Shown: positions 1 to 42,236 of the stretch, piece after piece | How positions within the stretch are numbered: position 1 is the stretch's first letter | How the letters are laid out: each line of letters opens with the position of its first letter | Origin: an uncultured Porphyromonadaceae bacterium | Lineage (GTDB): Bacteria; Bacteroidota; Bacteroidia; Bacteroidales; UBA12481 | Reading direction: 5' to 3' | Length of the DNA: 42,689 nucleotides | NCBI GenBank assembly: GCA_964465145.1 | Contig: CAYXJR010000034.1 | Location: forward strand, 1-42,689 | Notes under the pieces: model-generated | Database searches by the model: none | Told to the model about the DNA's origin: nothing | The model's input: only the letters and a program-made list of their open reading frames with translations | Made by a program: the position numbers and the translations under genes

Positions 1-825
1 GCGTTGAACTTCGGAAATTGTTTCAGGGCCAGTGCTGAAATTTTCAGCAATATAGCCGTCATGGTGAGTTTCCCACCGGCTTTTTCCACGGCTGCCTTCC
101 CCATTTTCCTGAATTTCTCCACCTCAGTTATATCAGCTTTGTCGAACTGAACAACCTGTGGAATGGTCTGCCAGGAATTCACGGTACTCTCGGCTGTGAT
201 CTGGCGTATCCTGCTCATAGGCTGTAATTCAATCTCACCCCACTGGGAAAAATCGGGGATCTCGGCGTATTCCATTTGAATCTTGGAAGTGCTGCCATGG
301 ATGGCTTGTTTAGCAAAAGTCTTCACATCCTCGTCTGATATCCTGCCGCCGGGGCCTGTTCCCTTCACCCTGGCAATATCCAAACCTAATTCCCTGGCAA
401 AACGCCTCACAGAAGGAGATGCAGGAACAGAGAAGGTGGATGCCGGGGTAGTTTCAACGGCAGCCGCCGGGATAACAGGTTGTGCGGTTACTATTTTTTC
501 AGCTGGAGGAGTTTCAGGTTTTACTGATATTGGAGCATCGGATGTTTTCACCGCTTCAACTTCCGGAACCGTATCACTTTCGGTACTCTCGGATTCAACC
601 ACCAGAATGGTTTGACCCACACGTATCTCATCTCCGGTGTTGACTTTGATATCAATAATTTTTCCTCCAAATGGCGAGGGTATATCTGTGCTTGCTTTGT
701 CGGTTTCTACCTCTATTATGGATTGATCTTCTTCTATTATATCCCCAACCGACACGAGGATCCGGGCCAGGTATCCTGAATCAACATTATCTGCTATTTC
801 AGGTAGTACAATGTTTTTTTTCATC
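1..825 (-). CDS. aceF: Dihydrolipoyllysine-residue acetyltransferase (pyruvate dehydrogenase E2), N-terminal part; continues beyond the window start
   Basis: Minus-strand ORF starting ATG at 825 (MKKNIVLPEIADNVDSGYLARILVSVGDIIEEDQSIIEVETDKAST...). This has the lipoyl-domain DKA motif. An Ala/Pro/Gly-rich linker follows; its reverse complement is the spurious + ORF 283..615. It lies immediately downstream of aceE on the same strand. Confidence 0.8.
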
Positions 826-842
826 TCAATAAGAATTATCGC

Positions 843-6499: not shown

Positions 6500-6830
6500 A
6501 TTAAGCTGTTAAGGTAGGAAAAAAAGATGAATCATGTTGCATGTTGCAGGTTGCAGGTTGCAAGGCATTGATAAACACTTCTTGAATGATATGGAAAACT
6601 TCGTAGAGACGCATACTTGCGTCTTGAGGTTTCAGGCTTGAGGATAAGTATAAGTAATTAGTAATAAGGTTATATGTAATTTATAAGAGGGATCTCCACC
6701 CTGCTCTGAGATACCAGATAACAGATTTTTTTAGGTCTTCCGTCTTAGTTCTTGTATCTTGTATCTTCTTTTACTCCCTGCTCCCCGTTACCTGTTCCCC
6801 GTTACCTGTTCCCTTCTTACTCCCCCGGTA
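6500..6830. repeat. Mosaic heptanucleotide-periodic repeat tract (ATGTTGC/AGGTTGC, CTTGAGG, ATAAGTA, TCTTGTA, CCCCGTT/ACCTGTT)
   Basis: Direct reading: catgttgcatgttgcaggttgcaggttgcaagg ... tcttccgtcttagttcttgtatcttgtatcttc ... ccccgttacctgttccccgttacctgttccc. A 7-nt phase is maintained across the motifs. Confidence 0.8.
6607..6624. other. Hairpin motif AGACGCA-TACT-TGCGTCT (7-bp stem, 4-nt loop)
   Basis: Perfect inverted repeat seen directly. A near-identical motif GGACGCA-TAAT-TGCGTCC occurs at 42219..42236. Confidence 0.6.
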
Positions 6831-15554: not shown

Positions 15555-15582
15555 GAGGCGAAGCACTTTCATTTAATTCCTC

Positions 15583-15777
15583 TCACCACCCGCCACCACC
15601 TGGTACCTTTGGTGCTGTTGAGTCAGCCTGAGCTTCTTTTGGACTGAAGAAAAAGAGCATGGATGCGGCTGTAAAGGCAGCATATTTGCCAGCCTTTTTC
15701 AGAGCCTCCTTTCTGGAAATTATCTCTGCTTCAGTTTTTTTCTCTGTGGTGGCTTTTTTATTCTTCTTGTCAGTCAT
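15583..15777 (-). CDS. Small 64-aa peptide with a charged N-terminus, hydrophobic core and C-terminal GGGGW; candidate substrate/precursor of the adjacent kinase–nucleotidyltransferase system
   Basis: MTDKKNKKATTEKKTEAEIISRKEALKKAGKYAAFTAASMLFFFSPKEAQADSTAPKVPGGGGW. A frame-conserved decayed paralog lies directly upstream of the kinase gene at 20556..20640, which supports that this is real coding sequence. Confidence 0.5.
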   Translation of the reverse strand: MTDKKNKKATTEKKTEAEIISRKEALKKAGKYAAFTAASMLFFFSPKEAQADSTAPKVPGGGGW

Positions 15778-15820
15778 TGCTATTCAATTCTCAATGGATG
15801 AAAATAAATTAATTTTGTTT

Positions 15821-17941
15821 TTACCAGGAAATTTTTTCATTTATCAATTCATTTCCATTCTGTATTTGCAGGAGGTAGATTCCCCTGTTCAACTGGGGTA
15901 AGTACAGAAGATTATCAAACTTATCCTTTAGAATCTTTTCTGCTCTTAATCGTCCTGAAAGATCATACACGCGCACTTTGGAACCATTATCCATTTTTCC
16001 AATAATTTTCACATAGCCTTCGGGCTGGTTAACTATGAACTTCAAATTATCTGCTGATATTTCAGCTTCTTCAATACTGAGTGTTTTCGCACTTGTATGT
16101 AAAAAGAATGTGCCAGCTTTGGTATTTTCATTATCGAGAAGCACAGAGTACGATGATCCTTCAACATCAAGCCTTGTATAAACTCCTGCATTCCTGTCCT
16201 CCAGGTAGCAGAATGCATTTTCCGGCAAATTATCTACTGCGGCTCTGAATGTAACAATAATACCTGCCGGAGCATCCAGTCCAATTGGTATTACAAGCTC
16301 ATCATAGTCTTCAGGAAGACTTTGAATGGCAAAATCCACACCATTATCTTCAACTAATTTTGAATAGAGAGAAAAATCCGGGTTACTTTTAAACATCCCG
16401 GCATCATAAGAAACATCCAGCCCACGTGTCATAGATTGATCAAAAGCTATTAGAGTATTGCTTTTGATATCCTGGCTTTCTGCGATGAGCTGAATGCTGG
16501 GCCATGGGGTATTGGAGGATTTAAAGTCAGTACCAGTTTGATGCTCCTGCATGGCTTCCGTGATACTAAAGGTAAATGTCCAAGGGTCTGCATTTTTTGC
16601 TCTTACAAAAAATCCCTGTCCTGCCTGAATATAGTTTTGGGCTAAAGATCCAGTTGGATTAGAAGCACCAGAATTATTTATTGTCTGGTATGTTGAAGAA
16701 GAAGCTTCCCACAAATACAAGGCAGCATAACTGACATCAAGTATTGCTACATTGGTGCTGTTTAATAAGTAATCTGTAGCACCACCAGAGGTAGCACGAA
16801 TGGCGCTCGGATATGGATTTCCCAGCAAATTCCAGCCCTGACCAGTGGAAACAGTGCGGGTAATAGTCATATTAGCTGGTGGTACATCAGTAGTTAGTAC
16901 CGTTCCTGTGAAAGAAACAATTCCATCTCCTGTACGCAGGGTAGAATAACCAATGCCATTTGTGAAGGGTATACCAGGATCAGCCGAAGGATAGGTATTC
17001 CAGTCATCAGCAGATTCACTGTAGGTTGTTATTGCTTTTAGAGAACCATTAGAAGCAATGCTATTTCCTGTAACGTATGACCAAATATCCTGACCAACAA
17101 CTGGGGCAGACACAAGATGCCACGGTACCACTGCACCAACCTTGCCTGTCATCCAGCGCTCATAAGTAATATTTCCGGTTGAGGTTCCTCCGACGATAAG
17201 AGATCCGGAAGAGGTATTATCGGATTGGACCAACAGGGTGGTAGTTATAAGATTACTACTGAAAGTTACTCCGGTTGTGGATCCAATTGTAATGTTCGCG
17301 GCTGTTTGAGCTTGACTAACCGTTTTGATCCCTGTTCCGGAGAAAACTAGATTATTAACAGTTGCAGGCAATCCGTTTGCTATTTGGTCAGCACCATTAA
17401 ATTCGTAATTGCCAGCTGTACTAAGAGTTACATTTTGATGCAGTGCTGGTGCTTGTATTGAACCGGTGCTTGTTGCATGATATATCCCATATTGATTCAT
17501 AGTGATCAAATTGCCATTCATGGCAAAAGTTGTTTGATTCCCATTAGTAACGTTTGCAGCGTAGGTAAGCTGAGTAGTACTAGTTGAATTAAACTGTATA
17601 GTTGCTCCAGAACCAATAGTTAATGTATTACCCCTTACAATGTTAATCACACCGTTTAAAGTAATAGAATGAGTATCGTTAGAGGTAAAATTTTGGTTCA
17701 ATTGGACAGTATGTCCTGTTGCAATTATAACATCATCAGTCCCGGTTGGAACAACATTACCAACCCAGGTGCCAGTGGCACTCCAGTTACCACTTGTAAG
17801 AGATGTTATTTGCCCCCAGCCTTTTTGTCCAACCAGAATGGCAAATAAGACGAAAAGAAATACAGTTTTAAAATAACCAGACTTGAGGAGTCCAAAAAGC
17901 TTACTTTCTGGCTGTTCTTGAGCTATGTTAATATTTACCAT
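15821..17941 (-). CDS. T9SS C-terminal-sorting-domain secreted protein, Thr/Asn/Gly-rich adhesin-like
   Basis: 706 aa with an N-terminal signal/anchor and long low-complexity T/S/N/G beta-rich regions. The C-terminal ~70 aa (FIVNQPEGYVKI...VRVYDLSGRL...GIYLLQI) match the Por/T9SS CTD pattern. Confidence 0.7.
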   Translation of the reverse strand: MVNINIAQEQPESKLFGLLKSGYFKTVFLFVLFAILVGQKGWGQITSLTSGNWSATGTWVGNVVPTGTDDVIIATGHTVQLNQNFTSNDTHSITLNGVINIVRGNTLTIGSGATIQFNSTSTTQLTYAANVTNGNQTTFAMNGNLITMNQYGIYHATSTGSIQAPALHQNVTLSTAGNYEFNGADQIANGLPATVNNLVFSGTGIKTVSQAQTAANITIGSTTGVTFSSNLITTTLLVQSDNTSSGSLIVGGTSTGNITYERWMTGKVGAVVPWHLVSAPVVGQDIWSYVTGNSIASNGSLKAITTYSESADDWNTYPSADPGIPFTNGIGYSTLRTGDGIVSFTGTVLTTDVPPANMTITRTVSTGQGWNLLGNPYPSAIRATSGGATDYLLNSTNVAILDVSYAALYLWEASSSTYQTINNSGASNPTGSLAQNYIQAGQGFFVRAKNADPWTFTFSITEAMQEHQTGTDFKSSNTPWPSIQLIAESQDIKSNTLIAFDQSMTRGLDVSYDAGMFKSNPDFSLYSKLVEDNGVDFAIQSLPEDYDELVIPIGLDAPAGIIVTFRAAVDNLPENAFCYLEDRNAGVYTRLDVEGSSYSVLLDNENTKAGTFFLHTSAKTLSIEEAEISADNLKFIVNQPEGYVKIIGKMDNGSKVRVYDLSGRLRAEKILKDKFDNLLYLPQLNRGIYLLQIQNGNELINEKISW

Positions 17942-17944
17942 GCT

Positions 17945-18178
17945 CTAAGGTTTTAATAGGTTAAAAATCGGTCTATCTAATTTACTAATAACTGCTAAAA
18001 TAACAAGACACCTTTGGGAAATAGAAGGTAAGGATAAAACATTTTGCCAGGTGTTATTCTCTGTTGTTGCCACAGGAATACCTTGATCAGCAGCAACAGC
18101 CTGTAAAGTTTGGGCGTATGAATAATTCGCTGAAAATAATAATAATAGAACCAAACACCCATACAATGATGAGTGCAA
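17945..18178 (-). CDS. Hypothetical small secreted protein (TTG start, no ATG)
   Basis: 77 aa with signal-peptide-like LYGCLVLLLLFSANYSYAQ. The start is TTG only. The ORF is in-frame with the downstream 706-aa gene across a TAG. Confidence 0.3.
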   Translation of the reverse strand: MHSSLYGCLVLLLLFSANYSYAQTLQAVAADQGIPVATTENNTWQNVLSLPSISQRCLVILAVISKLDRPIFNLLKP

Positions 18179-18232
18179 AAATTGCTTTGTTTTAATAACC
18201 TTGCGTAGTATTTAAAACGTTTTTACTCAATG

Positions 18233-18240
18233 CAAAGTTA
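18233..18240 (-). promoter_or_regulatory. Possible Bacteroidota -7 element TAACTTTG (TAnnTTTG) upstream of the 77-aa/T9SS/peptide genes
   Basis: The reverse complement of caaagtta at 18233-18240 matches the Bacteroidetes sigma-A -7 consensus TAnnTTTG, about 55 nt upstream of the TTG start. There is no clear -33 TTTG. Confidence 0.25.
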
Positions 18241-18304
18241 TTAACTTAAATTGAATTGCGCAGTCATAATGACTTTTTTTAGTGAAATTGGACAGGTTTA
18301 TGAT

Positions 18305-19426
18305 TTAGCGTCTGATAAAAAGGTTTTTATAGGTTGCAAAATGTGCTTTGTACCAAGACTTATCTCCCAACCTACGGATGAGAGCTTTCCGCTCTGCTTT
18401 GTTGTAAATGGCTATCACGGGCAATGTGACATATCTTTTCAGGCGTGTGCCAAAATACAAAGCTATTCTGAATGCAGAATGCCAGGCAGGATGATTAATA
18501 AAAAACAGAATTTGACGGAGGTATCTTCTGGCCTGAGAATTATTTTCGTATTGCAGGCTGTCGGGGCGATCAAGCAATTCATGAGAAACAATAATATGGG
18601 CATTTAGGCGCTTGAAATAATGACCGAAATCCTTGCTGGTTTGTAAACAATTGGCCCTTTGGGAAAGTAAAAACAAATCATAGCTATGACGGAGAGACAG
18701 TTTTCTTTCCTTAAAAGCCTTATCATTCATCTGAGCATTCATCATATTATGAATAATTTGATGCCTATCTGAGAGGATAAAGGCTTCTCCTTCATGGATT
18801 AATTTTCTTTTCTCCGTGTCTATCAGATCAAAGTTGAATTTCCGGTCGTATGGCTTCGATACTGGCTGCCGGTGCACTTCCACAGCAGCTAACAAAGTAT
18901 CATTACGTAAACGGGGATAATGCTTTATCTCTTTTAATATATCGGTACTGAAAGGAATGGGATAATAATATCCCAATTCCCCTAATAACTCTACTGCCGG
19001 GAGTAATTCCTCCCAGGCAACAAGGAAGTCAATATCCCCGATCATGCGTTCGCCATGATCCCGATAGAGCCCATCCATCATGTGGGCAGTACCTTTAAGG
19101 AAAATAGGAGAAATGCCTTTCGAATTGAGCAGCTTAATAATATCACTTATCTGGGCTAGTATTTCCTTATTCCTCCGGGAGTTGGTTTCATGCAGATGGT
19201 CAAGATGTACGATCAGGTCAGCAGGTAATTCGTTCAGGAGCTTGCTGTCTCTCAGCTGGATGTACAGAGCCGGAAGTACCAGTTGCTGGCTGCTCACCAA
19301 TACCAGATGTTCCCATTCCAACTCACCGCTCTGCAGGATTTTTCTAATCTCCGGTATGCGTTGCGGGTAATGCCTGAGAGTAAGGCAGTTTCCAACAAAG
19401 AACAATGTATCCTTATAGTTCATCAT
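18305..19426 (-). CDS. Nucleotidyltransferase-superfamily protein (NTP_transf_5-like, uncharacterised)
   Basis: 373 aa with the minimal pol-beta NTase signature ...FLKGTAHMMDGLYRDHGERMIGDIDFLV (hG[GS]...DhD). Its start overlaps the kinase stop by 14 nt (aATGATGAACTATAA), implying translational coupling. Confidence 0.75.
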   Translation of the reverse strand: MMNYKDTLFFVGNCLTLRHYPQRIPEIRKILQSGELEWEHLVLVSSQQLVLPALYIQLRDSKLLNELPADLIVHLDHLHETNSRRNKEILAQISDIIKLLNSKGISPIFLKGTAHMMDGLYRDHGERMIGDIDFLVAWEELLPAVELLGELGYYYPIPFSTDILKEIKHYPRLRNDTLLAAVEVHRQPVSKPYDRKFNFDLIDTEKRKLIHEGEAFILSDRHQIIHNMMNAQMNDKAFKERKLSLRHSYDLFLLSQRANCLQTSKDFGHYFKRLNAHIIVSHELLDRPDSLQYENNSQARRYLRQILFFINHPAWHSAFRIALYFGTRLKRYVTLPVIAIYNKAERKALIRRLGDKSWYKAHFATYKNLFIRR

Positions 19427-20555
19427 TGAACAGTTTACGCACAGTACTCACCATTTGTTCGTTATCGCTGTATGTTAATCTGTAGCAGGGTAGTTCGATG
19501 AACCAGTCCATAAAGCTCTCTACATTTTCATATATCGGGGAGATCCATGAATCCGTTACCAGTTTTTGAAATGCGATATGTTTTGGTTCTTCAGTCAGTT
19601 CCAGTTCAGCACCCGGGGAATAATTAATAAAAACAATTGCCTTAACCGGGGCAGCCGTGTTTTCAGGATCAGCCGTAATGGGAGGGGGAAGAAAAATCAT
19701 TCTTGTGGCAGCATCCTTATAATGGACTTCTCTGTGTTCCCCGAATTCAGGGAATGAGTTTTTAATAAGATCCCAAGCTCCTTCCTTTATTGAAATGGCG
19801 GAGGGGAATAGTCGTAATTCTCTTGTTGCAGCCTCGATAGGCACAAAATCATCGGCTATAACATCAAAACCATTGGCAAGAAGTATAGCCAGACTTGTAC
19901 TTTTCCCGCTTCCTGATTCACCGGGCATAATTATGCTGTTTTTCCCATCGCTGAGGGCTGATGCATGGAAAACCCCTATCCAGTCTTCTTCCTTCCTGTC
20001 ATAAACTTTATTCAGGAATTCCGCCGAAACCTTGCCCTGGAAGAAGTGTACCTCATCCATACCCCATGGGCCAATCAGCTTATCATCAGACCGCAAATAG
20101 AGATTATCCTCAATCCTGAAAAGCATAAATGTGTGATAATCGTCTTTTACCTCATTTGTTTCCAGGTGGGCAAGTTTTGGGTGGAACATTTCCTCCAGCT
20201 TCTTATGGTAATATTGAAAGCAGAAGCTGCATCCAGCGAACTGGTAATATTTCTCTGAATAAATTCCACCCTCAGGATTGATCTTAACTGAATCCTGGTG
20301 AGTATGATTAAGGATATTTTGAAAAGGCTTATTGTTTAATTCTATCAGGGAACTGACTTCCCCCACAAACTTTTGGGCATCAGCGTTTGGCAATCCATAG
20401 GTATTGGAGCACCAAAAGGCAATATTATCAAGGGGAATATTATTATTTAACTGATCAAAAACCCGGTAAGCAGGCTCCTCCATCCACACGTACTTGTTGC
20501 TTTTCTCAAACCATACAAGTGATTTGTCCTCCAGGGATCTGCAAAGTATTCTCAT
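19413..20555 (-). CDS. PqqD/RRE-like N-terminal domain fused to an HPr-kinase/phosphorylase-like P-loop kinase
   Basis: 380 aa. Residues ~10-80 (LVWFEKSNKYVWMEEPAYRVFDQL...IAFWCSNTYGLPNADAQKFVGEVSSLIELN) follow the PqqD pattern. A Walker-A motif GESGSGKST followed by an Asp-rich region matches the HprK C-terminal domain. Confidence 0.7.
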   Translation of the reverse strand: MRILCRSLEDKSLVWFEKSNKYVWMEEPAYRVFDQLNNNIPLDNIAFWCSNTYGLPNADAQKFVGEVSSLIELNNKPFQNILNHTHQDSVKINPEGGIYSEKYYQFAGCSFCFQYYHKKLEEMFHPKLAHLETNEVKDDYHTFMLFRIEDNLYLRSDDKLIGPWGMDEVHFFQGKVSAEFLNKVYDRKEEDWIGVFHASALSDGKNSIIMPGESGSGKSTSLAILLANGFDVIADDFVPIEAATRELRLFPSAISIKEGAWDLIKNSFPEFGEHREVHYKDAATRMIFLPPPITADPENTAAPVKAIVFINYSPGAELELTEEPKHIAFQKLVTDSWISPIYENVESFMDWFIELPCYRLTYSDNEQMVSTVRKLFNDEL

Positions 20556-20640
20556 TTATTTCCTCTCACCATTTGCTACCCGGATCCTTTGCTTTTTCTG
20601 AGTCTGCCTGAGCTTATTTAGGGCTGAAGAAAAAGACCAT
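20556..20640 (-). pseudogene. Decayed 3' fragment of a paralog of the 64-aa peptide gene (in-frame TAA, 5' end replaced by repeat element)
   Basis: About 80% nucleotide identity to 15562-15670. The conserved frame reads MVFFFSPK*AQADSEKAKDPGSKW*, compared with MLFFFSPKEAQADSTAPKVPGGGGW* in the intact copy. Homology ends at catggatg, where the 42-bp IR element begins. Confidence 0.55.
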
Positions 20641-20682
20641 GGATGTTGGAGCGCAGCGACAGTCCCGGCTTGCCGGGAACAG
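20641..20682. repeat. 42-bp inverted-repeat element, left copy (contains hairpin TCCCGG-cttg-CCGGGA)
   Basis: ggatgttggagcgcagcgacagtcccggcttgccgggaacag. The reverse complement of 23140-23181 matches at 41/42 positions. Confidence 0.9.
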
Positions 20683-20900
20683 TTAACAGATGACAGATAA
20701 CGGATAGCTTTGGTCTTAATTCTTTGATCTTGATTTCTTAAACAAGATTCTTGCATCTTGCGTCTTGCATCTTGTATCTTGTATTTTGCGTCTCCGGTCC
20801 CTCCGTCCCCTTTTCTCCCGCGTCACTCGTCACCCGTCACTTGTCACTCTTTTCCGTCCCCTCGTCCCTTTGTCCCTCTATTTCCCTTTTCTCCTCCACC
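20683..20900. repeat. Mosaic heptamer-periodic tract (ACAGATR, TCTTGYR, CGTCACY, TCGTCCC...) extending into the flotillin 3' coding end
   Basis: ttaacagatgacagataacggat ... cttgcatcttgcgtcttgcatcttgtatcttgtattttgcgtct ... cgtcactcgtcacccgtcacttgtcactc read directly. Confidence 0.8.
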
Positions 20901-22261
20901 TTCTTGCCTTTCAGATAATCAGGTAGTTCGAGGCCGGCCATCCTGAATAGTTCTTCGAATGGAGGTATGGAGCCGAGCATCCCGGAAAGAAAGTTTGCAG
21001 ATGTTGGGGATTTTCCGTCTTTTCCCGACGACATATTATCCCAGACGGTTATCTTATCGATCTTAAGGTTCTTAATGGCTTCAACCTGTGTTTTCACCAG
21101 CTCGGGCAGCTTATCGGCTATCATCAGCATAACGGCAGCGGAAGGATCTTCGTTGGCAGCATCCACCAGCTTCTCAAAACCGCTGGCCTCTTTGCTCAGG
21201 ATCTCGTAAATACCACGGGCCTCAGCATCCATCTTCAGGAAGATAGCATCTGCTTCCCCTTTGGCATGCCGCCTTGTCTGTTCGGCAATAGCTTCGGCAT
21301 TGATCTCAACTTTTTCCTTATCGATCTGGGCAGGCACCACGATGTTGGCATTCTGAGTGGCCCTGTCCCTCTCGGCACGGGCCTTTTCAGCATCTTGTTC
21401 AGCGGCATAAGCCTCTTCGAGGGCTTTGGCTTGTGTGACTTTCTCAGCCACAACAGCTTTCCTTTCGGCTTCTGCTTCTTTCTCACGCCTGGTGGCATTG
21501 GAGTTGGCAATAGTGATTTTAGCGGTGTTTTCCCCTTCCACAGCTGATGCATCGGCGGATGCAACCTGTATCCTCTGATCCTGATGGGCCTGGGCTTCAC
21601 CGATCGATCCATCTCTGTTCTTTTCGGCAACGCTTTTCTTGGCATCATTTATAGCTTTAGCGGCAGCTTCTTTACCCAAAGCTTCAATATATCCGGATTC
21701 ATCATTGATATCGGTTACGTTCACGTTGATCAGCTTAAGTCCGATCTTTTTTAGTTCAGCCTCAACGTTGGAAGATACAGCCGCCAGGAACTTATCCCTG
21801 TTAGAGTTGATCTCCTCAATATCCATTGTTGCTACCACCAGCCTCAACTGACCGAAAATGATGTCCTTGGCCAGGTTGCTGATGTCCTGCTGTGAGAGGC
21901 CAAGAAGCCTTTCTGCTGCATTGGTCATGACACCCGGCTCTGTGGAAATACCAACAGTAAAGCGGGATGGAACATCAACACGGATATTCTGCTTACTCAA
22001 AGCACTGGTTAGATTGATTTCAATGGATAGCGGTGTGAGATCGAGGAATGAATAATCCTGGATCACCGGCCAGATAAAGGCTGCCCCCCCATGTATGCAT
22101 TTGGCAGAACGGTACTCTGCTTCCCCGCCTTTACCAATCTTACCATAAATAACAAGAATACGGTCGGAAGGGCATCTCTTGTACCTTCTGAAGAATGAAA
22201 TGATGAGAATGAAAACGAAAAGTGCTGCTAAAACCAGCAGTATAAGTGTGTATTGTCCCAT
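20837..22261 (-). CDS. Flotillin-like SPFH/band-7 protein (YqiK-like)
   Basis: 474 aa with an N-terminal TM, an SPFH domain, then a long Ala/Glu/Lys-rich coiled-coil (AEAERKAVVAEKVTQAKALEEAYAAEQDAEKARAERDRA). This is typical flotillin architecture. Confidence 0.85.
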   Translation of the reverse strand: MGQYTLILLVLAALFVFILIISFFRRYKRCPSDRILVIYGKIGKGGEAEYRSAKCIHGGAAFIWPVIQDYSFLDLTPLSIEINLTSALSKQNIRVDVPSRFTVGISTEPGVMTNAAERLLGLSQQDISNLAKDIIFGQLRLVVATMDIEEINSNRDKFLAAVSSNVEAELKKIGLKLINVNVTDINDESGYIEALGKEAAAKAINDAKKSVAEKNRDGSIGEAQAHQDQRIQVASADASAVEGENTAKITIANSNATRREKEAEAERKAVVAEKVTQAKALEEAYAAEQDAEKARAERDRATQNANIVVPAQIDKEKVEINAEAIAEQTRRHAKGEADAIFLKMDAEARGIYEILSKEASGFEKLVDAANEDPSAAVMLMIADKLPELVKTQVEAIKNLKIDKITVWDNMSSGKDGKSPTSANFLSGMLGSIPPFEELFRMAGLELPDYLKGKKVEEKREIEGQRDEGTEKSDK

Positions 22262-22279
22262 TGGAGTATAATTTAAGAA

Positions 22280-22873
22280 TTATTTAGCGGAAGGTTTAAC
22301 AATCAGAATTTCATTATTGTATATATCGATCACCTCAACTACTGCCCCTGTTTTGAGCTCCTCTTCACTATCAGTAATGGCATCGAGGGTTTGCAGGCCC
22401 TGCACAGATATCTGCACCTTACCCATCCCGGCCCTTTTGGGAGGTATTGTAAGGTAAACAGTCCCAATCTTCCCTTTAGCATTTACCAGCCTCAGGGTGC
22501 CATCATCAGTGAGCTTCCACATGAAATAGATCAAGGATGCCATGATTACCATCATCAGGAGGCCAGCACCCAGGGAAATTATCAGGGTGAGCGGCACACT
22601 CAAACCGGAATTAACGCATGCGATCCCAGCCCAGGCAAAAATGGTGAAAAAGGCAACGAGGTTTTTCAATGAAAGGAACTGAAAACCAATCCCATGGTCA
22701 CTTTCGATGCTGGCATCAACATCCCCGCTAGAATCCACATCACTCATGTCCCCCATAAAAAATGTCATTATGGTTTGCAGAATGAAAATCACGGAAAAAG
22801 GTATGGCAATGATCCAGTAAACCTTTTCAAGGGCACCCAGGGAGGGCCACCACTCGGAGATAGAGAGTATCAT
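22280..22873 (-). CDS. NfeD-like membrane protein (YqiJ-like) partner of flotillin
   Basis: 197 aa with multiple TM helices followed by a C-terminal soluble beta-domain-like tail. It lies immediately upstream of and co-directional with flotillin. Confidence 0.65.
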   Translation of the reverse strand: MILSISEWWPSLGALEKVYWIIAIPFSVIFILQTIMTFFMGDMSDVDSSGDVDASIESDHGIGFQFLSLKNLVAFFTIFAWAGIACVNSGLSVPLTLIISLGAGLLMMVIMASLIYFMWKLTDDGTLRLVNAKGKIGTVYLTIPPKRAGMGKVQISVQGLQTLDAITDSEEELKTGAVVEVIDIYNNEILIVKPSAK

Positions 22874-22904
22874 GCTGGGAGGTATTTAATTATGTTTTAA
22901 TATC

Positions 22905-23139
22905 ACCCTTAAAAATACTAAATAATTCCAAATTACAACTGTATTCTCGCTCACTTCGTTCGCTGGAAATTACCAAGGCTTGTCGAAGCGAAGCGGAGAT
23001 CCCGATAGCGAAGCGTATCGGGAAGGCTTAAGGCATAAGACTTTAGTATAAGTATGAGTTTTAAGTTTTGAGGTTATAAGGAAAGTTATTATTCGTAACC
23101 TTACATAACCTCTCGTAACCTTTTTTAATCACCCGTCAT
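22905..23139. repeat. Mosaic heptamer-periodic/REP-like intergenic tract (TCGCTCACTTCGTTCGCTG, GCGAAGCG, ATAAGTA/TAAGTTT, CGTAACC motifs)
   Basis: Read directly. It shares a 20-mer with 40716-40736 and the ATAAGTA/TAAGGTT vocabulary with 6645-6680 and 40760-40800. Confidence 0.6.
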
Positions 23140-23181
23140 CTGTTCCCGGCAAGCCGGGACTGTCGCTGCGCTCCAGCATCC
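23140..23181. repeat. 42-bp inverted-repeat element, right copy
   Basis: ctgttcccggcaagccgggactgtcgctgcgctccagcatcc is the reverse complement of 20641-20682 with one mismatch. Confidence 0.9.
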
Positions 23182-23252
23182 TATATCCTCATACATCCTA
23201 AACCTTAATAGATTATTTCGAATTAATTTCGTACATTTAGAAAAAACCTGTC

Positions 23253-27538: not shown

Positions 27539-28680
27539 AGATCCTGGCTGTAATAATGAAATCTCTCAGTGAGCAATCCCGACAAATCTGGGTCGTGATC
27601 CTCACAATTTCCATGGCCCCGTTTTTTGTGGGAATTTATTACCTTATGTGGGAATCCACCAAGCTAAGCATGGATGTCGAGATTGTTAACCTCGACAAGG
27701 GATATGGTGGGTTTGATTATGGAAAGGAAATCAGCCAATTTGTTATTTCCCAATCATCCGATGAACTCCCTGTTAACTTTCATCTGAGTGCAAGTCGGGA
27801 TAATGCCCTCAATCAGATAAGGAACAAAAAATCTGATGCTATTCTTATCCTGCCTGAGGATTTCAGCGAGAAGGCAGTGATGTTGGGCAGGGGCGAAAAT
27901 GTGCAGATACCATTTGAACTTACTGGAGATCTTTCAGATATCAATTATATGCTGGCTGCTACCTGGACCTATGAGCTGATAGGTGCTTTTATTAGTGAAA
28001 ATACAGGGATTAAAACCCCATTTGAATTCAGGGAAACCCCGGCTGGTGTTTCGGGGGAGATGAATGAGTTCGACCTTTATGTTCCGGGCTTGCTGATCCT
28101 GTCAACCGTTATGCTGATGTTTACGGCGGCAATTGCCTTCGTGCGGGAGCCTGAACAGAAAACAATTATCCGACTTAAGTTATCACAGCTAAAGAACTGG
28201 GAATTTATTACCGGAGTCAGCCTGGTTCAAATGTTTATCGGATTTTTCTCTATTCTTCTCACTCTGGCTGTTGCAGCTGCATTGGGATTTGAATTCAGGG
28301 GGTCATGGGGAAGTTTCTTAATCGTGACAACACTCACCTGTCTCTCAATAATCGGGTTTAGCCTGATTGTAGCGGCTCTCACACGTACTGTTAACCAGGT
28401 ACTGGTAGTTGGTAATTTCCCTCTTTTCCTGTTTATGTTTTTTACAGGAGCTATGATGCCTGTTCACGGACCAACACTATTCAGTTTTGCATCGTATGAT
28501 TTTACTCTGCCAGGACTAATGTCGCCCTACCATGCCGTCAGCGCACTGAAAAAAATCAGCATATTCGAAGCCTCACTTGGGGAAATATGGCCGGAATTAA
28601 CCTGCCTGGCCGGGATCACGGTTATTTATTTCCTTATCGGAGCCTTGCTCTACCGCCGACAGCACCTACGGCTATTATAA
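27535..28680 (+). CDS. ABC-2 type transporter permease
   Basis: 381 aa. After a large N-terminal extracytoplasmic domain there are about 5 further TMs. A 4-nt overlap with the ATPase gene indicates coupling. Confidence 0.75.
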   Translation: MKILAVIMKSLSEQSRQIWVVILTISMAPFFVGIYYLMWESTKLSMDVEIVNLDKGYGGFDYGKEISQFVISQSSDELPVNFHLSASRDNALNQIRNKKSDAILILPEDFSEKAVMLGRGENVQIPFELTGDLSDINYMLAATWTYELIGAFISENTGIKTPFEFRETPAGVSGEMNEFDLYVPGLLILSTVMLMFTAAIAFVREPEQKTIIRLKLSQLKNWEFITGVSLVQMFIGFFSILLTLAVAAALGFEFRGSWGSFLIVTTLTCLSIIGFSLIVAALTRTVNQVLVVGNFPLFLFMFFTGAMMPVHGPTLFSFASYDFTLPGLMSPYHAVSALKKISIFEASLGEIWPELTCLAGITVIYFLIGALLYRRQHLRLL

Positions 28681-28878
28681 CAGATAACAGATGACAGATA
28701 ACAGATAACAGATGACAGATGACAGATAACAGATGACGGATGACTTAAAAGAAGGATGTTGGATTTTAGATTTTAAATGTCGCTCTTTTAACTTAACTTA
28801 TTTTCCTTAAGACTTAAAGCTTTAAACCTACTTTTGCCTTCTGCCTTCTGCCCTCTGCCCTCTGCCTTATCTTTCGTC
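28681..28878. repeat. About 28 consecutive degenerate heptamers filling an entire convergent intergenic spacer (CAGATAA/CAGATGA ... TTAAAGC ... CTGCCTT/CTGCCCT)
   Basis: cagataacagatgacagataacagatgacagatgacagataacagatgacggatgac...ctgccttctgccctctgccctctgcctt. A 7-nt phase is kept from the stop at 28680 to the stop at 28879. Confidence 0.9.
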
Positions 28879-38154: not shown

Positions 38155-39258
38155 ATGGAAATCCGACCTTTCACCCTCGAACGCTATTTCGCAGAATTTG
38201 AATTTGCGGCGAAGCACCTCCTTAGTAGCTCTGATTGTGAACCCCTTGCGATGCAAGAGTTGTTGGATATGGCCGATCCAGAGGCTATAGACTTGTGGAA
38301 TAATCTAAAGCTGGCCTATACCGAGTCGCTAGGCCTGCCAGCTCTCAGGGAGGAAATTGCCGGCATGTATGATGGTATTCAGCCTGACAGGGTAATGGTG
38401 GTAAATCCGGAGGAAGGGATTTTTCTAACTATGCAGACTTTGTTGGAGCCCGGCGATGAGGTGGTTGCCACCTTCCCCGGCTATCAGTCATTATATGAGA
38501 TTGCTATTAGCCAGGGCTGTAAAGTTGGTAAGTGGGAGCCTGATGATAATAATGAATTCTCAGTAGATAAATTGGAGGATCTTATTACTGACAAAACCAG
38601 AATGCTGGTGATTAATTTCCCTCATAATCCAACTGGTGACCAATTGAGCAAAAAAGATTTTGAGAGGGTGATCTCCTTAGCGAAAGAGAGGGATATTTTA
38701 TTGTTTTCAGATGAGATGTACAGGTTTCTTGAGTATAAAGAGGAGGATAGGCTGCCATCAGCTTGTGAGATCTATGAAAACTCAATTACCCTATGTGGTT
38801 TGTCGAAGAGTTTTGCTCTCCCTGGGCTTCGGCTTGGTTGGTTGATTATCAATGATCCTGTTGTCATGAACAAGCTGCAGTCGTATAAAGATTACACCAC
38901 AATATGCCAGCCAGGGCCTTCAGAGATTCTTGCTCTGATGGCAATAAGAAACAGAGACGAGATCATCAGAAGAAATCTGAAAATAATTGAAAAAAATATC
39001 CACTTAATGGAAGAATTCGCGGTGAGAAATCCGGATTTTATCAGATGGATCCCTCCAAAGGCTGGATCAGTTGCTTTTCCGGAAATTTTTGTGAGATATG
39101 AAGTGGAATATTTTTGCAGATGCCTGACAAAGAAAACTGGTGTTATGCTTCTGCCTTCAAGTGTATATGGCTATAAAAAAAATAGGGTCCGTATTGGTTT
39201 AGGGCGGATTGATTTTGAGGAAGGGTTAAGGGTGCTGGAGGGGTTTGTAACAATTTAA
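38155..39258 (+). CDS. Class I/II pyridoxal-phosphate-dependent aminotransferase
   Basis: 367 aa with a PLP-lysine region SKSFALPGLRLGW. The last 5 codons (GFVTI*) overlap a REP unit. Confidence 0.8.
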   Translation: MEIRPFTLERYFAEFEFAAKHLLSSSDCEPLAMQELLDMADPEAIDLWNNLKLAYTESLGLPALREEIAGMYDGIQPDRVMVVNPEEGIFLTMQTLLEPGDEVVATFPGYQSLYEIAISQGCKVGKWEPDDNNEFSVDKLEDLITDKTRMLVINFPHNPTGDQLSKKDFERVISLAKERDILLFSDEMYRFLEYKEEDRLPSACEIYENSITLCGLSKSFALPGLRLGWLIINDPVVMNKLQSYKDYTTICQPGPSEILALMAIRNRDEIIRRNLKIIEKNIHLMEEFAVRNPDFIRWIPPKAGSVAFPEIFVRYEVEYFCRCLTKKTGVMLLPSSVYGYKKNRVRIGLGRIDFEEGLRVLEGFVTI

Positions 39259-39420
39259 TCCCTACGGGATAATTGATTTTGCATCCTTGAATTTGTTCTA
39301 TAACAATTTAATACCTACGGGATATGTGGTTGTTGGGTTTTACCATGTCAATAATTGCCCGTAGGGCATAAACTGTTATAGAAACACACGTCCCACAATC
39401 AATATCTTACCCCGTAGGGG
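39244..39420. repeat. REP cluster (units TTCTATAACAATTTAATCCCTACGGGATA in both orientations; includes a REP doublet)
   Basis: Core hairpin ATCCC-TAC-GGGAT. Copies are at 39255, 39309 (+), 39356 and 39408 (−). The ~65-nt doublet 39309-39376 is repeated at 40127-40206. Confidence 0.85.
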
Positions 39421-39891
39421 TTATACATCTTCAATAAACCGAAAAAGGTATTTTTCGTCGAATTCTATTTTCAATTTTTCAAGAAAGGTCAAAAATTCTT
39501 GCTTAAATGTTCTGGCCTTATGATGATTCTCCTGGTTCAAAATATAATTATAGACCCTGTCCATATTGGAATGACTGCAAGAAAATGCTCCATATCCTTC
39601 CTGCCAGGAAAATTTGCCCATACAGAATTTTTCTTTATTGATGAGGAGGGATGTACTTCTTTTTACGTTTTGAACCACCTCAGAGATTGTTTTTGATGGA
39701 TTCAATCCAATCAGTAAATGAACATGATCTGAAGTGCCATCAATAATTATTGACTTGTGACCTAGGGTTGAGACAACTCCGCTCATATATTTAAAAACCT
39801 TTGGCCTAATTTGATCATTTAGAAGGGCTTCACGGTTTTTAACGGCAAATACAAGGTGGACATATAATTGGCAATAGGTTTTTGGTTTCAT
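39421..39891 (-). mobile_element. REP-associated tyrosine transposase (RAYT) / IS200-family Y1 HUH transposase
   Basis: 156 aa with an HUH motif (SDHVHLLIG) and a catalytic Tyr region (RVYNYILNQENHH). It is flanked on both sides by REP arrays. Confidence 0.8.
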
Positions 39892-39899
39892 ATTTTTTC

Positions 39900-40255
39900 T
39901 GTTAATCCCCTACGGGGAATTGATAATAAATTAAGGTATCCTTTGCTATAACAATATAATCCCTACGGGATAAATTTTCAAAGATATTTTGTCTTTGTGC
40001 TGTGTCATTTTCTATAACAGTTTAATCCCTACGGGATAATTGATTTTGCATCCTTGAATTTGTTCTATAACAATACAACCCTTACGGGGTAGATTAATCC
40101 CTGTGTAATTCCTTGTTCTATAACAATATAATCCCTACGGGATATGTGGTTGTTGGGTTTTACCATGTCAATAATTGCCCGTAGGGCATAAACTGTTATA
40201 GAAACATAGAACCATAACCGATTTTTTACCCCGTAGGGGTTACACATTTTATTTA
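39900..40255. repeat. REP cluster, about 8 units (CCCTACGGG / CCCGTAGGG cores) upstream of RAYT
   Basis: Copies at 39906, 39957, 40021, 40076, 40127 (+), 40174 and 40226 (−). It contains a near-exact copy of the 39254-39305 and 39309-39386 segments. Confidence 0.85.
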
Positions 40256-40346
40256 AATATTTTCCATTCTAATGGTATAGATGCATTATTTCCTGATATT
40301 GGAAAAAATCCACCCACTTTTTGTTATTTTGTAGAAAATTGCACTT

Positions 40347-40688: not shown

Positions 40689-40800
40689 AGGGGATTCAAG
40701 GGGATTAAGGTTATTTCGCTCACTGCGTTCGCTGTGATTCAGGTGATTCCAGGTGATTCGAGGTTTACTTATAACCTTATTACCAATTACTTATACTTAT
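40689..40800. repeat. Heptamer-periodic tract (GATTCAA/GGGGATT, GTGATTC/AGGTGAT, TTATAAC/CTTATAC) including the TCGCTCACTGCGTTCGCTG 20-mer
   Basis: gattcaaggggattaagg...tcgctcactgcgttcgctgtgattcaggtgattccaggtgattcgagg...ttacttatacttatac read directly. It overlaps the 3' end of the gene fragment at 40780. Confidence 0.7.
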
Positions 40801-41152
40801 ACTCAGGCCTTCCAACCGACGTGACTCCCTTTTCCCAGCAATATGAGCTACCCATTTTAACTGCTCATTGGCAAACTTTTCTTTTGCCTTAGAGTGGTTT
40901 TTTATGTAGGACCAATTTGAGAATACTACAAGTAATCCATAATCCCGGATATGTTCAAAATCTTTCGACATATCGAGGCCCATTCCTGTTGCCCAGTTCC
41001 TGGTCCGCACAAATATGTAATATTCACCGGGCTCCAAAACTGAAAAACTGGTTACTGCATCCTCAACCGGGATCCCCAGTCCATGTGCCATGAGATAGGG
41101 CGAACCCATCACATCCATAAACTGCTGGTCGTCACCCAGCCACCTTTATTAT
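40780..41152 (-). pseudogene. C-terminal gene fragment (possibly FAD-dependent oxidoreductase-like), no start codon; C-terminus runs into the repeat tract
   Basis: The frame is open from a double stop at ~41152 ([31 protein letters not shown]...TRNWATG...). There is no upstream coding continuation, and the last ~8 codons are derived from repeat sequence. Confidence 0.3.
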
Positions 41153-42218: not shown

Positions 42219-42236
42219 GGGACGCATAATTGCGTC
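42219..42236. other. Hairpin motif GGACGCA-TAAT-TGCGTCC between convergent gene ends (possible bidirectional terminator)
   Basis: 7-bp perfect stem. It is a near-copy of the 6607-6624 hairpin and lies between the DMT stop (42187) and the thioredoxin-like stop (42240). Confidence 0.5.

Follow-up and report, generated by a model that had tools for sequence, protein, structure and literature searches.

The window analysed here (the whole stretch of DNA, 42.7 kb) contains a flotillin operon that lies between two nearly perfect inverted repeats of 42 nt. This arrangement raises the question of whether the repeats are the ends of a cassette that has moved or inverted the operon, or two copies of a small dispersed element.

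Architecture of the inverted repeats

The repeats and their hairpins are located as follows.

20641..20682, plus strand: left 42-nt repeat, made of GGATG (20641-20645, native peptide-gene sequence), the core (20646-20678) and ACAG (20679-20682)
20663..20678, plus strand: left-core hairpin TCCCGG-CTTG-CCGGGA, 6-bp stem and 4-nt loop
23140..23181, minus strand: right 42-nt repeat, with its core at 23144-23176, identical to the cores at loci L003, L006 and L011
23144-23159: right-core hairpin, 6-bp stem and 4-nt loop

The two 42-mers (20641-20682 on the plus strand and 23140-23181 on the minus strand) are reverse complements with one mismatch, and 0 of 100 shuffles yielded any match. In this the initial annotation was correct, as it was in seeing the TCCCGG-cttg-CCGGGA hairpin in each copy (20663-20678 and 23144-23159). 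The uninterrupted identity between the two copies is 36 bp (20647-20682). The pair can be extended to 66 nt at 83% identity, and the adjoining heptamers are the sole source of this extension. Each 42-mer consists of GGATG, a 33-nt core and ACAG, the last being the first bases of a heptamer tandem array. The core reads (C/T)TGGAGCGCAGCGACAG-TCCCGG-CTTG-CCGGGA, that is, an AGCG-rich tail of 17 nt followed by a hairpin with a 6-bp stem and a 4-nt loop. The left core opens with T where the other copies have C. No terminal inverted repeats were found in the core, which has a single internal hairpin. The whole 42-mer folds at -9.5 kcal/mol (z = -1.7), a stability just modestly above that of shuffles. 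In a terminator and promoter scan, neither repeat copy was called as an intrinsic terminator; no T-run comes after the hairpin, the next bases being ACAG on one strand and CTGTCGC on the other. Rfam gave no match in the whole window at the gathering threshold, and permissive settings returned noise alone for both spacers (E >= 0.1, eukaryotic families).

Heptamer arrays and a further hairpin lie close to the cores.

20678..20706, plus strand: AACAGAT/AACGGAT heptamer array, on the inner side of the left core
20708..20877, strand not assigned: further period-7/8 arrays (CTTTGAT, TCTTGCA, CGTCACT, CGTCCCTT)
22982..23026, plus strand: a second, different hairpin element, GAAGCGAAGCGGAGA-TCCCGATA-GCGAAGC-GTATCGGGA, in the same spacer as the right core
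23129..23143: short remnant of heptamers (TCACCCG TCATCTG), inward of the right core
23177..23205: TAGGATG-type heptamer-like sequence (CATCC TATATCC TCATACATCC TA), outward of the right core

The heptamers had initially been placed on the outer sides of the repeats, but those of the ACAGATG type are on the inner sides (20678-20706 and 23129-23143). The period-7/8 arrays at 20708..20877 fill the space up to the flotillin 3' end and overlap it. In total, the window contains 21 period-7 arrays, and their unit sequences vary (ACGGATG, GTGACGG, TCTTGTA and others). The hairpin element at 22982..23026 shares the layout of the core, with an AGCG-rich tail and then a TCCCG...CGGGA stem.

The enclosed operon and its relatives

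Two genes lie between the repeats.

20837..22261, minus strand: flotillin (SPFH/Band_7), 474 aa, Band_7 E = 5e-28, a bystander enclosed by the pair
22280..22873, minus strand: membrane protein, 197 aa, the conserved flotillin partner gene, upstream of flotillin

The pair encloses both genes complete and also 266 nt upstream of the operon, in agreement with the initial annotation (474 aa, ~270 nt). Its naming of the second gene as NfeD did not hold. The 197-aa protein has no NfeD match in Pfam or NCBIfam, and the label is a guess from position. Flotillin is 82-94% identical across many Bacteroidales, a range expected of vertical inheritance. The operon is an ordinary locus that has been inherited vertically.

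A near-perfect 42-nt inverted pair around a complete two-gene operon and its upstream region is what a composite mobile cassette would look like. The repeats would then be the terminal inverted repeats of a non-autonomous element that imported flotillin and its partner gene, as the initial annotation proposed, and the breakpoint of a truncated peptide gene coincides with the left repeat. The gene order of the relatives contradicts this. In 4/4 relatives whose flotillin is 91-94% identical to that of the window (L019, L025, L026 and L027), OmpA is divergent from the 197-aa gene and flotillin. The OmpA/197-aa-gene spacers of these relatives are 45, 75, 177 and 209 nt long versus 379 nt in the window, and the core was found in none of them (0/4). 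The initial annotation proposed to check whether the operon is missing from the syntenic site in relatives; it is present in all four. Because these genes are adjacent there without the repeat, the right-hand "end" falls between genes that were already neighbours; the operon thus occupies its ancestral position, and the repeats came in afterwards. The compared relatives are distant (the coding sequence of L019 has ~78% nucleotide identity), so the exact empty site is not reconstructable. Target-site duplications were not found, the left outer flank (...AAGACCAT) and the right one (TATATCCT...) sharing no direct repeat. Furthermore, no transposase lies in or beside the segment, the lost portion of the peptide gene does not reappear past the right repeat, and solitary copies of an identical core exist at other loci. 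With flotillin conserved as a vertically inherited gene would be, we consider a cassette extremely improbable.

On the downstream side of the operon, L019, L025 and L026 also have period-7 arrays after the flotillin stop codon, and no array was found at this position in the more distant L021 and L023. Distant relatives of the latter type have hairpin-plus-T-run terminators where close relatives have heptamer arrays.

The left junction and the resident transposases

The left repeat adjoins the remnant of a small-peptide gene, of which an intact paralog is present in the window.

15583-15777, minus strand: intact small-peptide ORF, 64 aa
20578..20645, minus strand: small-peptide gene remnant, covering the 3' third and containing an internal stop; the intact 64-aa ORF is its paralog

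The homology between 15583-15777 and the 20.6-kb copy ends exactly at the left repeat (...CCATGGATG). The earlier statement that the left copy truncated the peptide gene is just one reading of this. GGATG at the junction is common to the native peptide sequence and the flank of the element, and the intact paralog shows that it pre-existed. The remainder of the peptide gene was not found beyond the left or right repeat in the window. The common GGATG and the missing remainder favour a microhomology junction (deletion or rearrangement) over a simple insertion, and the junction with the cut peptide gene is best read as a putative rearrangement at GGATG.

One mobile-element gene was found in the window.

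39421-39891: IS200-like Y1 transposase, the sole transposase in the window

This gene is the mobile-element gene nearest to the repeats, at a distance of ~16 kb. It scores 75.6 bits for IS200, and 22 bits for REP-associated transposase versus a cutoff of 80. It was rejected as the cognate enzyme of the core, as its own flanking hairpin repeats (TAATCCCTACGGGATA; CCCTACGGG-type) are unrelated to the core. An IS91-family transposase 1.2 kb from the L006 copy was also rejected as a parent element, since such a neighbour occurs at 1/5 copies only.

Orientation of the enclosed segment

Two inverted copies that are identical over 36 uninterrupted bp (20647-20682) would also suit recombination sites, which might flip the 2.4-kb segment by a site-specific enzyme or, rarely, by RecA over 36 bp. 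An identity of ~36 bp is near the minimum length for bacterial homologous recombination. Eight junction-spanning contigs from at least 7 samples (L008, L028 and L029 at the left junction; L010 and L012-L015 at the right junction; 99.97-100% identical to the window) were all in the orientation of the window, assemblies giving the majority form only. No empty site and no array-length variant was found among these same-population contigs when they were compared for polymorphism. No invertase or tyrosine recombinase gene lies nearby, and a Pfam search of the ORFs of >= 110 aa from 843 to 39258, with several smaller ones beside the repeats, found no recombinase. The upstream/promoter region of the operon lies inside the segment, so that a flip would not switch expression on or off. 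The single copies of the core at other loci also speak against inversion. The inversion sites suggested by the initial annotation are unsupported by these data, and we regard an invertible segment as very unlikely.

Other copies of the core

An exact-core scan of metagenomes found the identical 33-nt core at L003, L006 (= L009) and L011, at least three further unrelated loci. The metagenomes with these loci also hold the two copies of the window itself (L008 and L010). From the shared metagenomes and the shared heptamer types, we infer that the three loci belong to the same genome as the window. All three are solitary copies between or beside ACGGATG/ACGGATA heptamers. In 4/5 copies the core is 100% identical, the fifth has a 1-nt difference, and the first flanking heptamers already diverge. 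An invariant core with differing flanks indicates that the core is a discrete unit. GGATG is directly 5' of the core in 5/5 copies. It belongs to native coding sequence in the left copy, to a TAGGATG-type array in the right copy and to ACGGATG arrays elsewhere, three contexts in all. The bases after the core are ACAG in both window copies versus ACGG in the other three. Relative to its flanking genes the core has no single orientation: it is forward at L011 and L003, and reverse in both window copies and at L006.

The solitary identical cores in both orientations fit the dispersed REP/MITE-like family that was proposed from the window, except that the core is not a MITE, because it has no terminal inverted repeats and no target duplication, and that its copy number appears low. 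Rough capture-recapture arithmetic puts the exact copy number at ~5-10 or at 6-8 (5 loci recovered in the population), not hundreds. The genome and metagenome scans each used one exact core pattern, and exact-match scans miss diverged copies, so that the family size and host range are lower bounds. Three other matches of the metagenome scan (L004, L005 and L007) were rejected as chance, being unrelated GC-rich palindromes or hairpins without heptamers. A BLAST match of the core plus heptamers to a Variovorax plasmid was dismissed as weak and partial (27 nt, E = 0.1). Two core patterns gave 0 matches in viral contigs.

For a few copies in a 4-Mb genome, the expected number of core pairs 2.4 kb apart under random placement is ~0.03-0.06 (rough arithmetic). 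The proximity of the window copies is therefore improbable if placement is random and may not be pure chance. Local copying could account for it; both copies share ACAG after the core.

Occurrence in other phyla

At L002, a core with 31/33 identical positions is flanked by GTCAAAG heptamers in a contig of 64% GC. Its DUF362 protein is ~80% identical to Phycisphaerales/Planctomycetota MAG proteins, and the origin of the contig appears to be Planctomycete-like. L030, a relative of L002, keeps the UbiA-DUF362 gene order, and neither core nor heptamers were found in its UbiA-DUF362 spacer. In L001, a Balneolaceae MAG, (GTGAAAA)7 is followed by CTGGAGCG-ACAGTCCCGGCAGGCCGGGA, a shortened version of the core. 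L001 was the sole match among 185,579 species genomes in an exact-pattern scan. By rough arithmetic, the chance expectation for 20 specified bases is ~1.1 in 596 Gb on both strands, which matches this single observation, and L001 is taken as real solely because of an extra CTGG match and the adjoining heptamer array.

An invariant core between variable flanks, with a near-identical one in a Planctomycete-like contig and a similar one in a Balneolaceae MAG, could point to a functional cis element. The core, on both sides of the operon, would then be a putative binding site or structural signal, such as an insulator, a terminator or a site for a nucleoid protein or a regulator, and would be conserved across phyla because its protein partner is. 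Heptamer arrays in close relatives replacing the hairpin-plus-T-run terminators of more distant ones would agree with this. However, the core is absent from the orthologous spacers of the four same-operon relatives and of L030, so it is not needed for these genes. Its orientation to genes is mixed, it has no T-run, no terminator call and no Rfam family, and with 1 match in 185,579 species genomes its distribution is too patchy to fit a host function that is conserved. We therefore think that a cis function is unlikely.

Comparison with known repeat systems

Small dispersed repeats (SDRs) are very small (tens of nt, 21-27 nt), hairpin-capable and non-coding, with near-identical copies and hundreds per genome. 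They are present or absent at orthologous sites without an encoded enzyme, and their host genomes are rich in heptamer tandem repeats. Elhai and co-workers reportedly described them in 2008 in Nostoc and other cyanobacteria. The core resembles them in being small, hairpin-capable, non-coding and without an encoded enzyme. Near-identical copies of < 40 nt lie at unrelated loci (5 loci, identical or 1 nt off), and the core is present or absent at orthologous sites (the OmpA/197-aa gene spacer; the UbiA-DUF362 spacer of L002 versus L030). The insertion context is also fixed in both, the core following GGATG in 5/5 copies and SDR5 inserting between the 3rd and 4th nucleotides of HIP1 (PMC4390886). 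In contrast to the cyanobacterial SDRs, the core has a different sequence, 33 nt versus 21-27 nt, occurs in Bacteroidota and Planctomycetota-like hosts, and appears to number about ten copies versus hundreds.

We know of no REPs inside heptamer arrays. REP/REPIN elements are mobilised by RAYT (Y1 HUH) transposases (Bertels and Rainey 2011, PMC3116915). With them the core shares a short extragenic hairpin, a conserved single-stranded 5' tail beside the stem, intergenic dispersal and occasional inverted pairs (PMC3116915), and the window holds a Y1 transposase gene (39421-39891) surrounded by its own hairpin repeats. These repeats are unrelated to the core, unlike in the RAYT systems, and no core copies flank the gene. 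REPs are imperfect palindromes of 20-40 nt that have a conserved 5' head and occur in tens to hundreds of extragenic copies. The core combines a hairpin with a conserved tail of 17 nt and was recovered at 5 loci. It lacks a GTAG-type head, it does not form a full palindrome, and its copy number appears low. Its copies are singletons (the window pair is 2.4 kb apart), whereas REPIN doublets are 70-100 nt apart.

Intergenic heptamer direct repeats occur in Beggiatoaceae, cyanobacteria and some Bacteroidetes, those of cyanobacteria being known as STRR (MacGregor 2015, PMC4679880). Close relatives share the gene neighbourhood and have shorter spacers without arrays, and the origin and function of the arrays are unexplained (PMC4679880). 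Here too, several 7-nt unit sequences occur per genome and the spacers of relatives are shorter at the flotillin locus, but the units (among them ACGGATG, GTGACGG and TCTTGTA) are not the same as TAACTGA. MITEs and composite transposons are likewise non-autonomous, carry an inverted repeat pair and can bracket passenger genes; a MITE is a single unit of 50-500 nt with terminal inverted repeats and a target-site duplication. They differ from the present pair, which has no target-site duplication and no transposase and encloses an operon ancestral in place; the 33-nt unit has no terminal inverted repeats, and the heptamers beside it form arrays rather than a fixed duplication.

Origin and meaning of the repeat pair

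We believe that the pair probably represents two copies of a REP/SDR-like, non-coding small dispersed repeat, and not the ends of a mobile or invertible cassette. The literature on heptamer arrays covers the arrays only, and not a conserved 33-nt hairpin core within them. The element is dispersed, has an invariant core with variable flanks, is present or absent at orthologous sites and has no gene-strand preference, and the position of the operon is ancestral. The flotillin operon was thus in place first, and core-bearing, heptamer-rich DNA came later into both flanking intergenic regions, the core sitting within or at the edge of heptamer tandem arrays and, in this population, always directly 3' of GGATG. 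The inverted orientation and the bracketing may be incidental, or one copy may have been made locally from the other. We infer that what spreads is the core itself, as a discrete unit of DNA. It might be moved by an enzyme in trans that recognises the hairpin, the tail and the GGATG target, or template switching or short-tract gene conversion might copy it from one heptamer array to another. No mobilising enzyme for the core was identified, which counts against this explanation.

Any functional role of the bracketing of the operon is purely putative, and the interesting remainder is the core with its heptamers across phyla. Tentatively, and with more doubt than confidence, the 33-nt core may be an ultra-small mobile module, undescribed before, that is spreading horizontally among Bacteroidales and a Planctomycete-like host and, in a shortened form, Balneolaceae, and that is tied mechanistically to heptamer arrays. 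Within this reading, the core may either target the arrays or seed them.

For annotators, the locus is a warning that independent or local copies of micro-repeats can give near-perfect inverted repeats around an operon. It also illustrates cleanly how heptamer arrays, together with tiny hairpin modules, inflate the intergenic DNA of this Bacteroidales lineage. To our knowledge, the heptamer arrays of cyanobacteria, Beggiatoaceae and Bacteroidetes have been familiar for decades without a mechanism. If the core does spread horizontally, this would mean that a machinery acting in trans has gone unrecognised, such as an enzyme of the HUH type or another one that works on single-stranded DNA. The core might then help to explain where the heptamer arrays of bacterial intergenic DNA come from, which has long lacked an explanation. 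A conserved sequence accompanying such arrays would give the search for the responsible enzyme or process a concrete starting point.

The inverted repeat pair and the genes it encloses

The 42-mer GGATGTTGGAGCGCAGCGACAGTCCCGGCTTGCCGGGAACAG (20641-20682) has a single further match in the 42.7-kb window, at 23140-23181 on the opposite strand with 1 mismatch, and 0 of 100 dinucleotide-preserving shuffles yielded one. Both 42-mers contain the hairpin TCCCGG-CTTG-CCGGGA. The inverted pair and the internal hairpin described in the initial annotation are thus borne out. The heptamers, which it had placed on the outer sides, are of the ACAGATG type and lie on the inner side of both copies. With a repeat finder the pair stretches to 66 nt at 83%, the added part being heptamer units. 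Folded as single-stranded DNA, the 42-mer forms a 6-bp stem and a weak second stem (-9.5 kcal/mol), just 1.7 sd above shuffles in stability. The enclosed genes are:

20837-22261, minus strand, flotillin (SPFH/Band_7), 474 aa
22280-22873, minus strand, 197-aa membrane protein gene

The 266 nt upstream of the 197-aa gene are likewise enclosed. The extent of the proposed flotillin/NfeD operon and its protein lengths therefore stand, but the name NfeD is unsupported: the 197-aa protein had no NfeD match in Pfam or NCBIfam, permissive thresholds included. It is a conserved flotillin partner in every relative examined. At 20837-20900, period-7/8 array sequence overlaps the end of the flotillin gene, and the last ~14-20 residues are encoded by repeat-like DNA and not conserved with homologs.

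A 33-nt core dispersed among heptamer arrays

An exact scan of the metagenome collection with the central 24 nt and a free loop (AGCGACAGTCCCGGNNNNCCGGGA) returned 10 contigs. Two of them (L008 and L010) hold the window's own copies. In the same metagenomes, the core lies at unrelated loci: beside phosphate transporter and methyltransferase genes (L006, and L009, the same locus from another sample), sulfatase and TetR regulator genes (L011), and an unannotated gene (L003). These solitary cores largely bear out one earlier suggestion, that of a dispersed REP/MITE-like family with two copies flanking the operon; with neither terminal inverted repeats nor a target-site duplication, the element is not a MITE. 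The matches in L004, L005 and L007 were treated as chance (unrelated GC-rich palindromes or hairpins without heptamers).

Alignment of all copies gave an invariant 33-nt core, CTGGAGCGCAGCGACAGTCCCGGCTTGCCGGGA, with T at position 1 in the left window copy. GGATG stands before it and ACGGAT or ACAGAT after it; the original 42-mer is therefore GGATG, the core and ACAG. An ACGGATG unit directly borders the core on each side in L006 and L011; in L003 the bordering units are ACGGATG and ACGGATA. The core is constant, but the heptamers around it differ, starting with the first unit. Measured against its neighbouring genes, the core has forward orientation in L011 and L003, and reverse orientation in L006 and both window copies. 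There is no T-run at the core, a terminator scan called neither window copy, and Rfam gave no match. This makes a strand-specific role as RNA unlikely; in its behaviour the element is a repeat at the level of DNA.

The window contains 21 tandem arrays of period 7 (or 14 or 21), 663 bp in total, all intergenic except two short ones. Their units are varied and include GTGACGG (x17), ACAGATG (x9), TCTTGTA, CTTCTGC, AAGGCAA and GTTGCAG. Since L003 and L011 have the same kinds of units, we assigned them to the window's genome or a very close one. The core is confined to arrays of the ACGGATG/ACAGATG or TAGGATG type, and the nine-unit ACAGATG array at 28680-28744 is without it. Some "arrays" appear to be dispersed, ordered mosaics rather than local slippage products, because a composite low-complexity motif (…CTTATTAC TTATAC TTATACTC AAGCCT… AAGCCTTAAGCCTT) recurs at 6634-6679, 23020-23084 and 40765-40810, two of these sites being 91% complementary over 46 nt, and also downstream of flotillin in two relatives (L019 8494-8559, L026 4349-4414).

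Other small repeats were also observed. A second hairpin element (22982-23026, GAAGCGAAGCGGAGA-TCCCGATA-GCGAAGC-GTATCGGGA), in the spacer between an OmpA-family gene and the 197-aa gene, has the layout of the core, an AGCG-rich tail and then a TCCCG…CGGGA stem. Its loop, GCGAAGC, is a sequence known for folding into a highly stable DNA mini-hairpin. Among the repeat arrays, the motif TCGCTCACT(T/G)CGTTCGCTG occurs at 22945-22966 and 40716-40734, and the palindrome GACGCATA(C/A)TTGCGTC at 6606-6628 and 42221-42236.

Position of the operon in relatives

The flotillin is 82-94% identical to thousands of environmental Bacteroidales proteins, including those of Prolixibacteraceae, Marinilabiliaceae and Tenuifilaceae. 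We compared the neighbourhoods of its closest homologs, L019 (93% identical), L025 (94%), L026 (91%) and L027 (92%). In all four, a divergent OmpA-family gene adjoins the 197-aa gene and flotillin. The L019 proteins are 82% (197-aa protein) and 44% (OmpA) identical to those of the window, with a common OmpA N-terminal motif. The OmpA/197-aa-gene spacers measure 45, 75, 177 and 209 nt in the relatives versus 379 nt in the window. Their promoter-proximal ends are recognisably conserved, and the core was found in none of the four relatives' spacers (for L019 also by BLAST). This indicates that the right repeat came between existing neighbours, which cannot be reconciled with an element that imported the operon and had the repeats as its ends. 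The proposal of a mobile cassette with terminal inverted repeats is thus contradicted by synteny, the operon being present beside OmpA where the core is absent. Nor is there a target-site duplication at the pair or a transposase inside or beside the enclosed segment, and the missing 5' part of the peptide gene cut at the left repeat does not resume beyond the right repeat.

Heptamer arrays directly follow the flotillin stop codon in the window and, with other unit sequences, in L019 (8441-8562), L025 (2943-2986) and L026 (4320-4424). The more distant L021 and L023 have hairpin-plus-T-run terminators there. On this flank the relatives have an ABC transporter, an exporter directly downstream of flotillin in L019 (8563-10257), L026 (4425-6119) and L027 (3317-5751); in L027 it comes after genes of lasso-peptide type (Transglut_core3, PqqD). 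The flank is variable, since the window has a different peptide-modification cluster there, and within the clade this seems to be a site of changing peptide natural-product genes.

Orientation of the enclosed segment

The repeats had also been proposed as recombination sites inverting the 2.5-kb segment. Same-population contigs from at least 7 samples are 99.97-100% identical to the window. The left junction is spanned by three (L008, L028, L029) and the right by five (L010, L012, L013, L014, L015), and all eight are in the window orientation. No recombinase gene lies near the pair, and inversion would not act as a switch because the operon's upstream region is inside the segment. An invertible segment is therefore not supported, although these assemblies represent the majority form only and the 36-bp perfect stretch might permit rare homologous inversion.

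The left junction and possible local copying

A peptide-modification (RiPP-like) cluster occupies 15558-20645 (minus strand). Its intact peptide gene is:

15583-15777, minus strand, 64-aa peptide (MTDKKNKK...VPGGGGW) ending GGGGW

The cluster also encodes a 706-aa protein (match to the T9SS sorting tail weak and under the cutoff), a 373-aa NTP_transf_5 protein and a 380-aa HprK-related kinase. A ~108-nt segment (peptide 3' end and kinase gene start) is present twice, 5 kb apart. In one copy the peptide is intact and the kinase start truncated, and in the other this is reversed, like the edge of a partial tandem duplication.

The second peptide copy, at 20.6 kb directly upstream of the kinase gene, retains only the last third of the peptide and has an internal stop codon. 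Homology stops at ...CCATGGATG, where the intact paralog reads ...GCATGGATG; GGATG here is therefore native peptide-gene sequence. It is also the 5-mer preceding the core in every other copy, a five-base coincidence with a probability of ~1 in 1000 by our arithmetic. The junction can be read as target preference (insertion 3' of GGATG) or as microhomology-mediated deletion or rearrangement. For this copy rearrangement needs fewer assumptions, because no further peptide-gene sequence was found on the far side. Thus the paralog does end at the repeat, as first noted, but simple insertion is the less likely cause of its truncation.

One metagenome has four core loci and another two, with one in common, which by a crude capture-recapture calculation of ours gives 6-8 exact copies. 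If this estimate holds, chance would not be expected to place two copies 2.4 kb apart. The core is followed by ACAG in both window copies and by ACGG in the other three, which hints that one window copy was made locally from the other. Local copying would explain the 42-nt rather than 33-nt repeat and would lend no function to the bracketing of the operon.

The core in other lineages

A species-level scan (one genome per species, 185,579 genomes) gave one match to the core pattern, about the chance expectation for 20 specified bases by our arithmetic. We consider this copy, in a Balneolaceae MAG, a genuine relative, because CTGG before it restores CTGGAGCG-ACAGTCCCGGCAGGCCGGGA, the core minus CAGCG, and a (GTGAAAA)7 array adjoins it. 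A Planctomycete-like contig of 64% GC (L002), another of the 10 returned by the metagenome scan, carries CTGGAGCGCAGCGACAGTCCCGGCGCGCCGGGA, 31/33 identical to the core, between GTCAAAG-type heptamers. Its DUF362 protein is ~80% identical to Phycisphaerales/Planctomycetota MAG proteins. A relative (L030) keeps the UbiA/DUF362 gene order, and its 133-nt spacer has neither core nor heptamers. Comparing L002 with L030 and the window with its relatives, the core is present or absent at orthologous sites in two phyla, each time with locally different heptamers. In L002 the UbiA-family ORF (3-1421) reads through heptamers and core without a stop codon, a ~60-residue C-terminal extension versus the L030 homolog. 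The core was not found in viral contigs, and a plasmid search gave a weak partial match only.

Possible mobilisation and known systems

The window encodes a 156-aa IS200/IS605-family Y1 transposase (39421-39891, minus strand; Pfam Y1_Tnp E = 3e-26; NCBIfam transpos_IS200 75.6 bits). Clusters of REP/REPIN-like hairpin repeats of its own, TTCTATAACAATWTAATCCCTACGGG with inverted partners, lie on either side. Since these repeats are unrelated to the core, the enzyme is not the obvious mobiliser. At this locus (39235-40260) the partners are 36 nt apart, there are at least 6 direct copies and numerous inverted pairs, and each flank of the gene carries a copy of a 94-nt unit (98% identity). The locus looks RAYT-style; the NCBIfam score is for IS200, not for a REP-associated transposase. 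In L006, an IS91-family transposase (621-1790, minus strand; Y2_Tnp and an N-terminal integrase SAM-like domain, NCBIfam 311 bits) is found 1.2 kb away from the core; a cyclopropane-synthase-like methyltransferase separates the two.

The core might have spread by the logic of HUH single-strand transposition (IS200/IS605, REP/RAYT), which it resembles in its conserved single-stranded tail beside a hairpin, a fixed 5' 5-mer and no duplication. Alternatively, template switching or short-tract gene conversion may copy it from array to array; long tracts are disfavoured because the first flanking heptamers are variable.

Of the known systems, the small dispersed repeats of Nostoc come closest. Elhai and colleagues in 2008 reportedly described these as tiny, near-identical modules that form hairpins and insert in precise contexts, without a known mobiliser. 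SDR5 inserts precisely within HIP1 (PMC4390886). REP/REPIN-RAYT systems (PMC3116915) share the hairpin-plus-tail layout, but in the DNA covered here no cognate transposase flanked by the core and no doublets were found, and the copy number looks low, with five loci recovered. Heptamer arrays occur in Beggiatoaceae, cyanobacteria and some Bacteroidetes, and relatives of array-bearing genomes keep the gene neighbourhood but have shorter spacers, free of arrays (MacGregor 2015, PMC4679880). The window arrays match this phenomenon, shorter array-free spacers in relatives included. The two 42-mers are copies of a small, dispersed hairpin repeat lying within heptamer arrays. What remains notable is the near-identity of its core across phyla, always with heptamers alongside.
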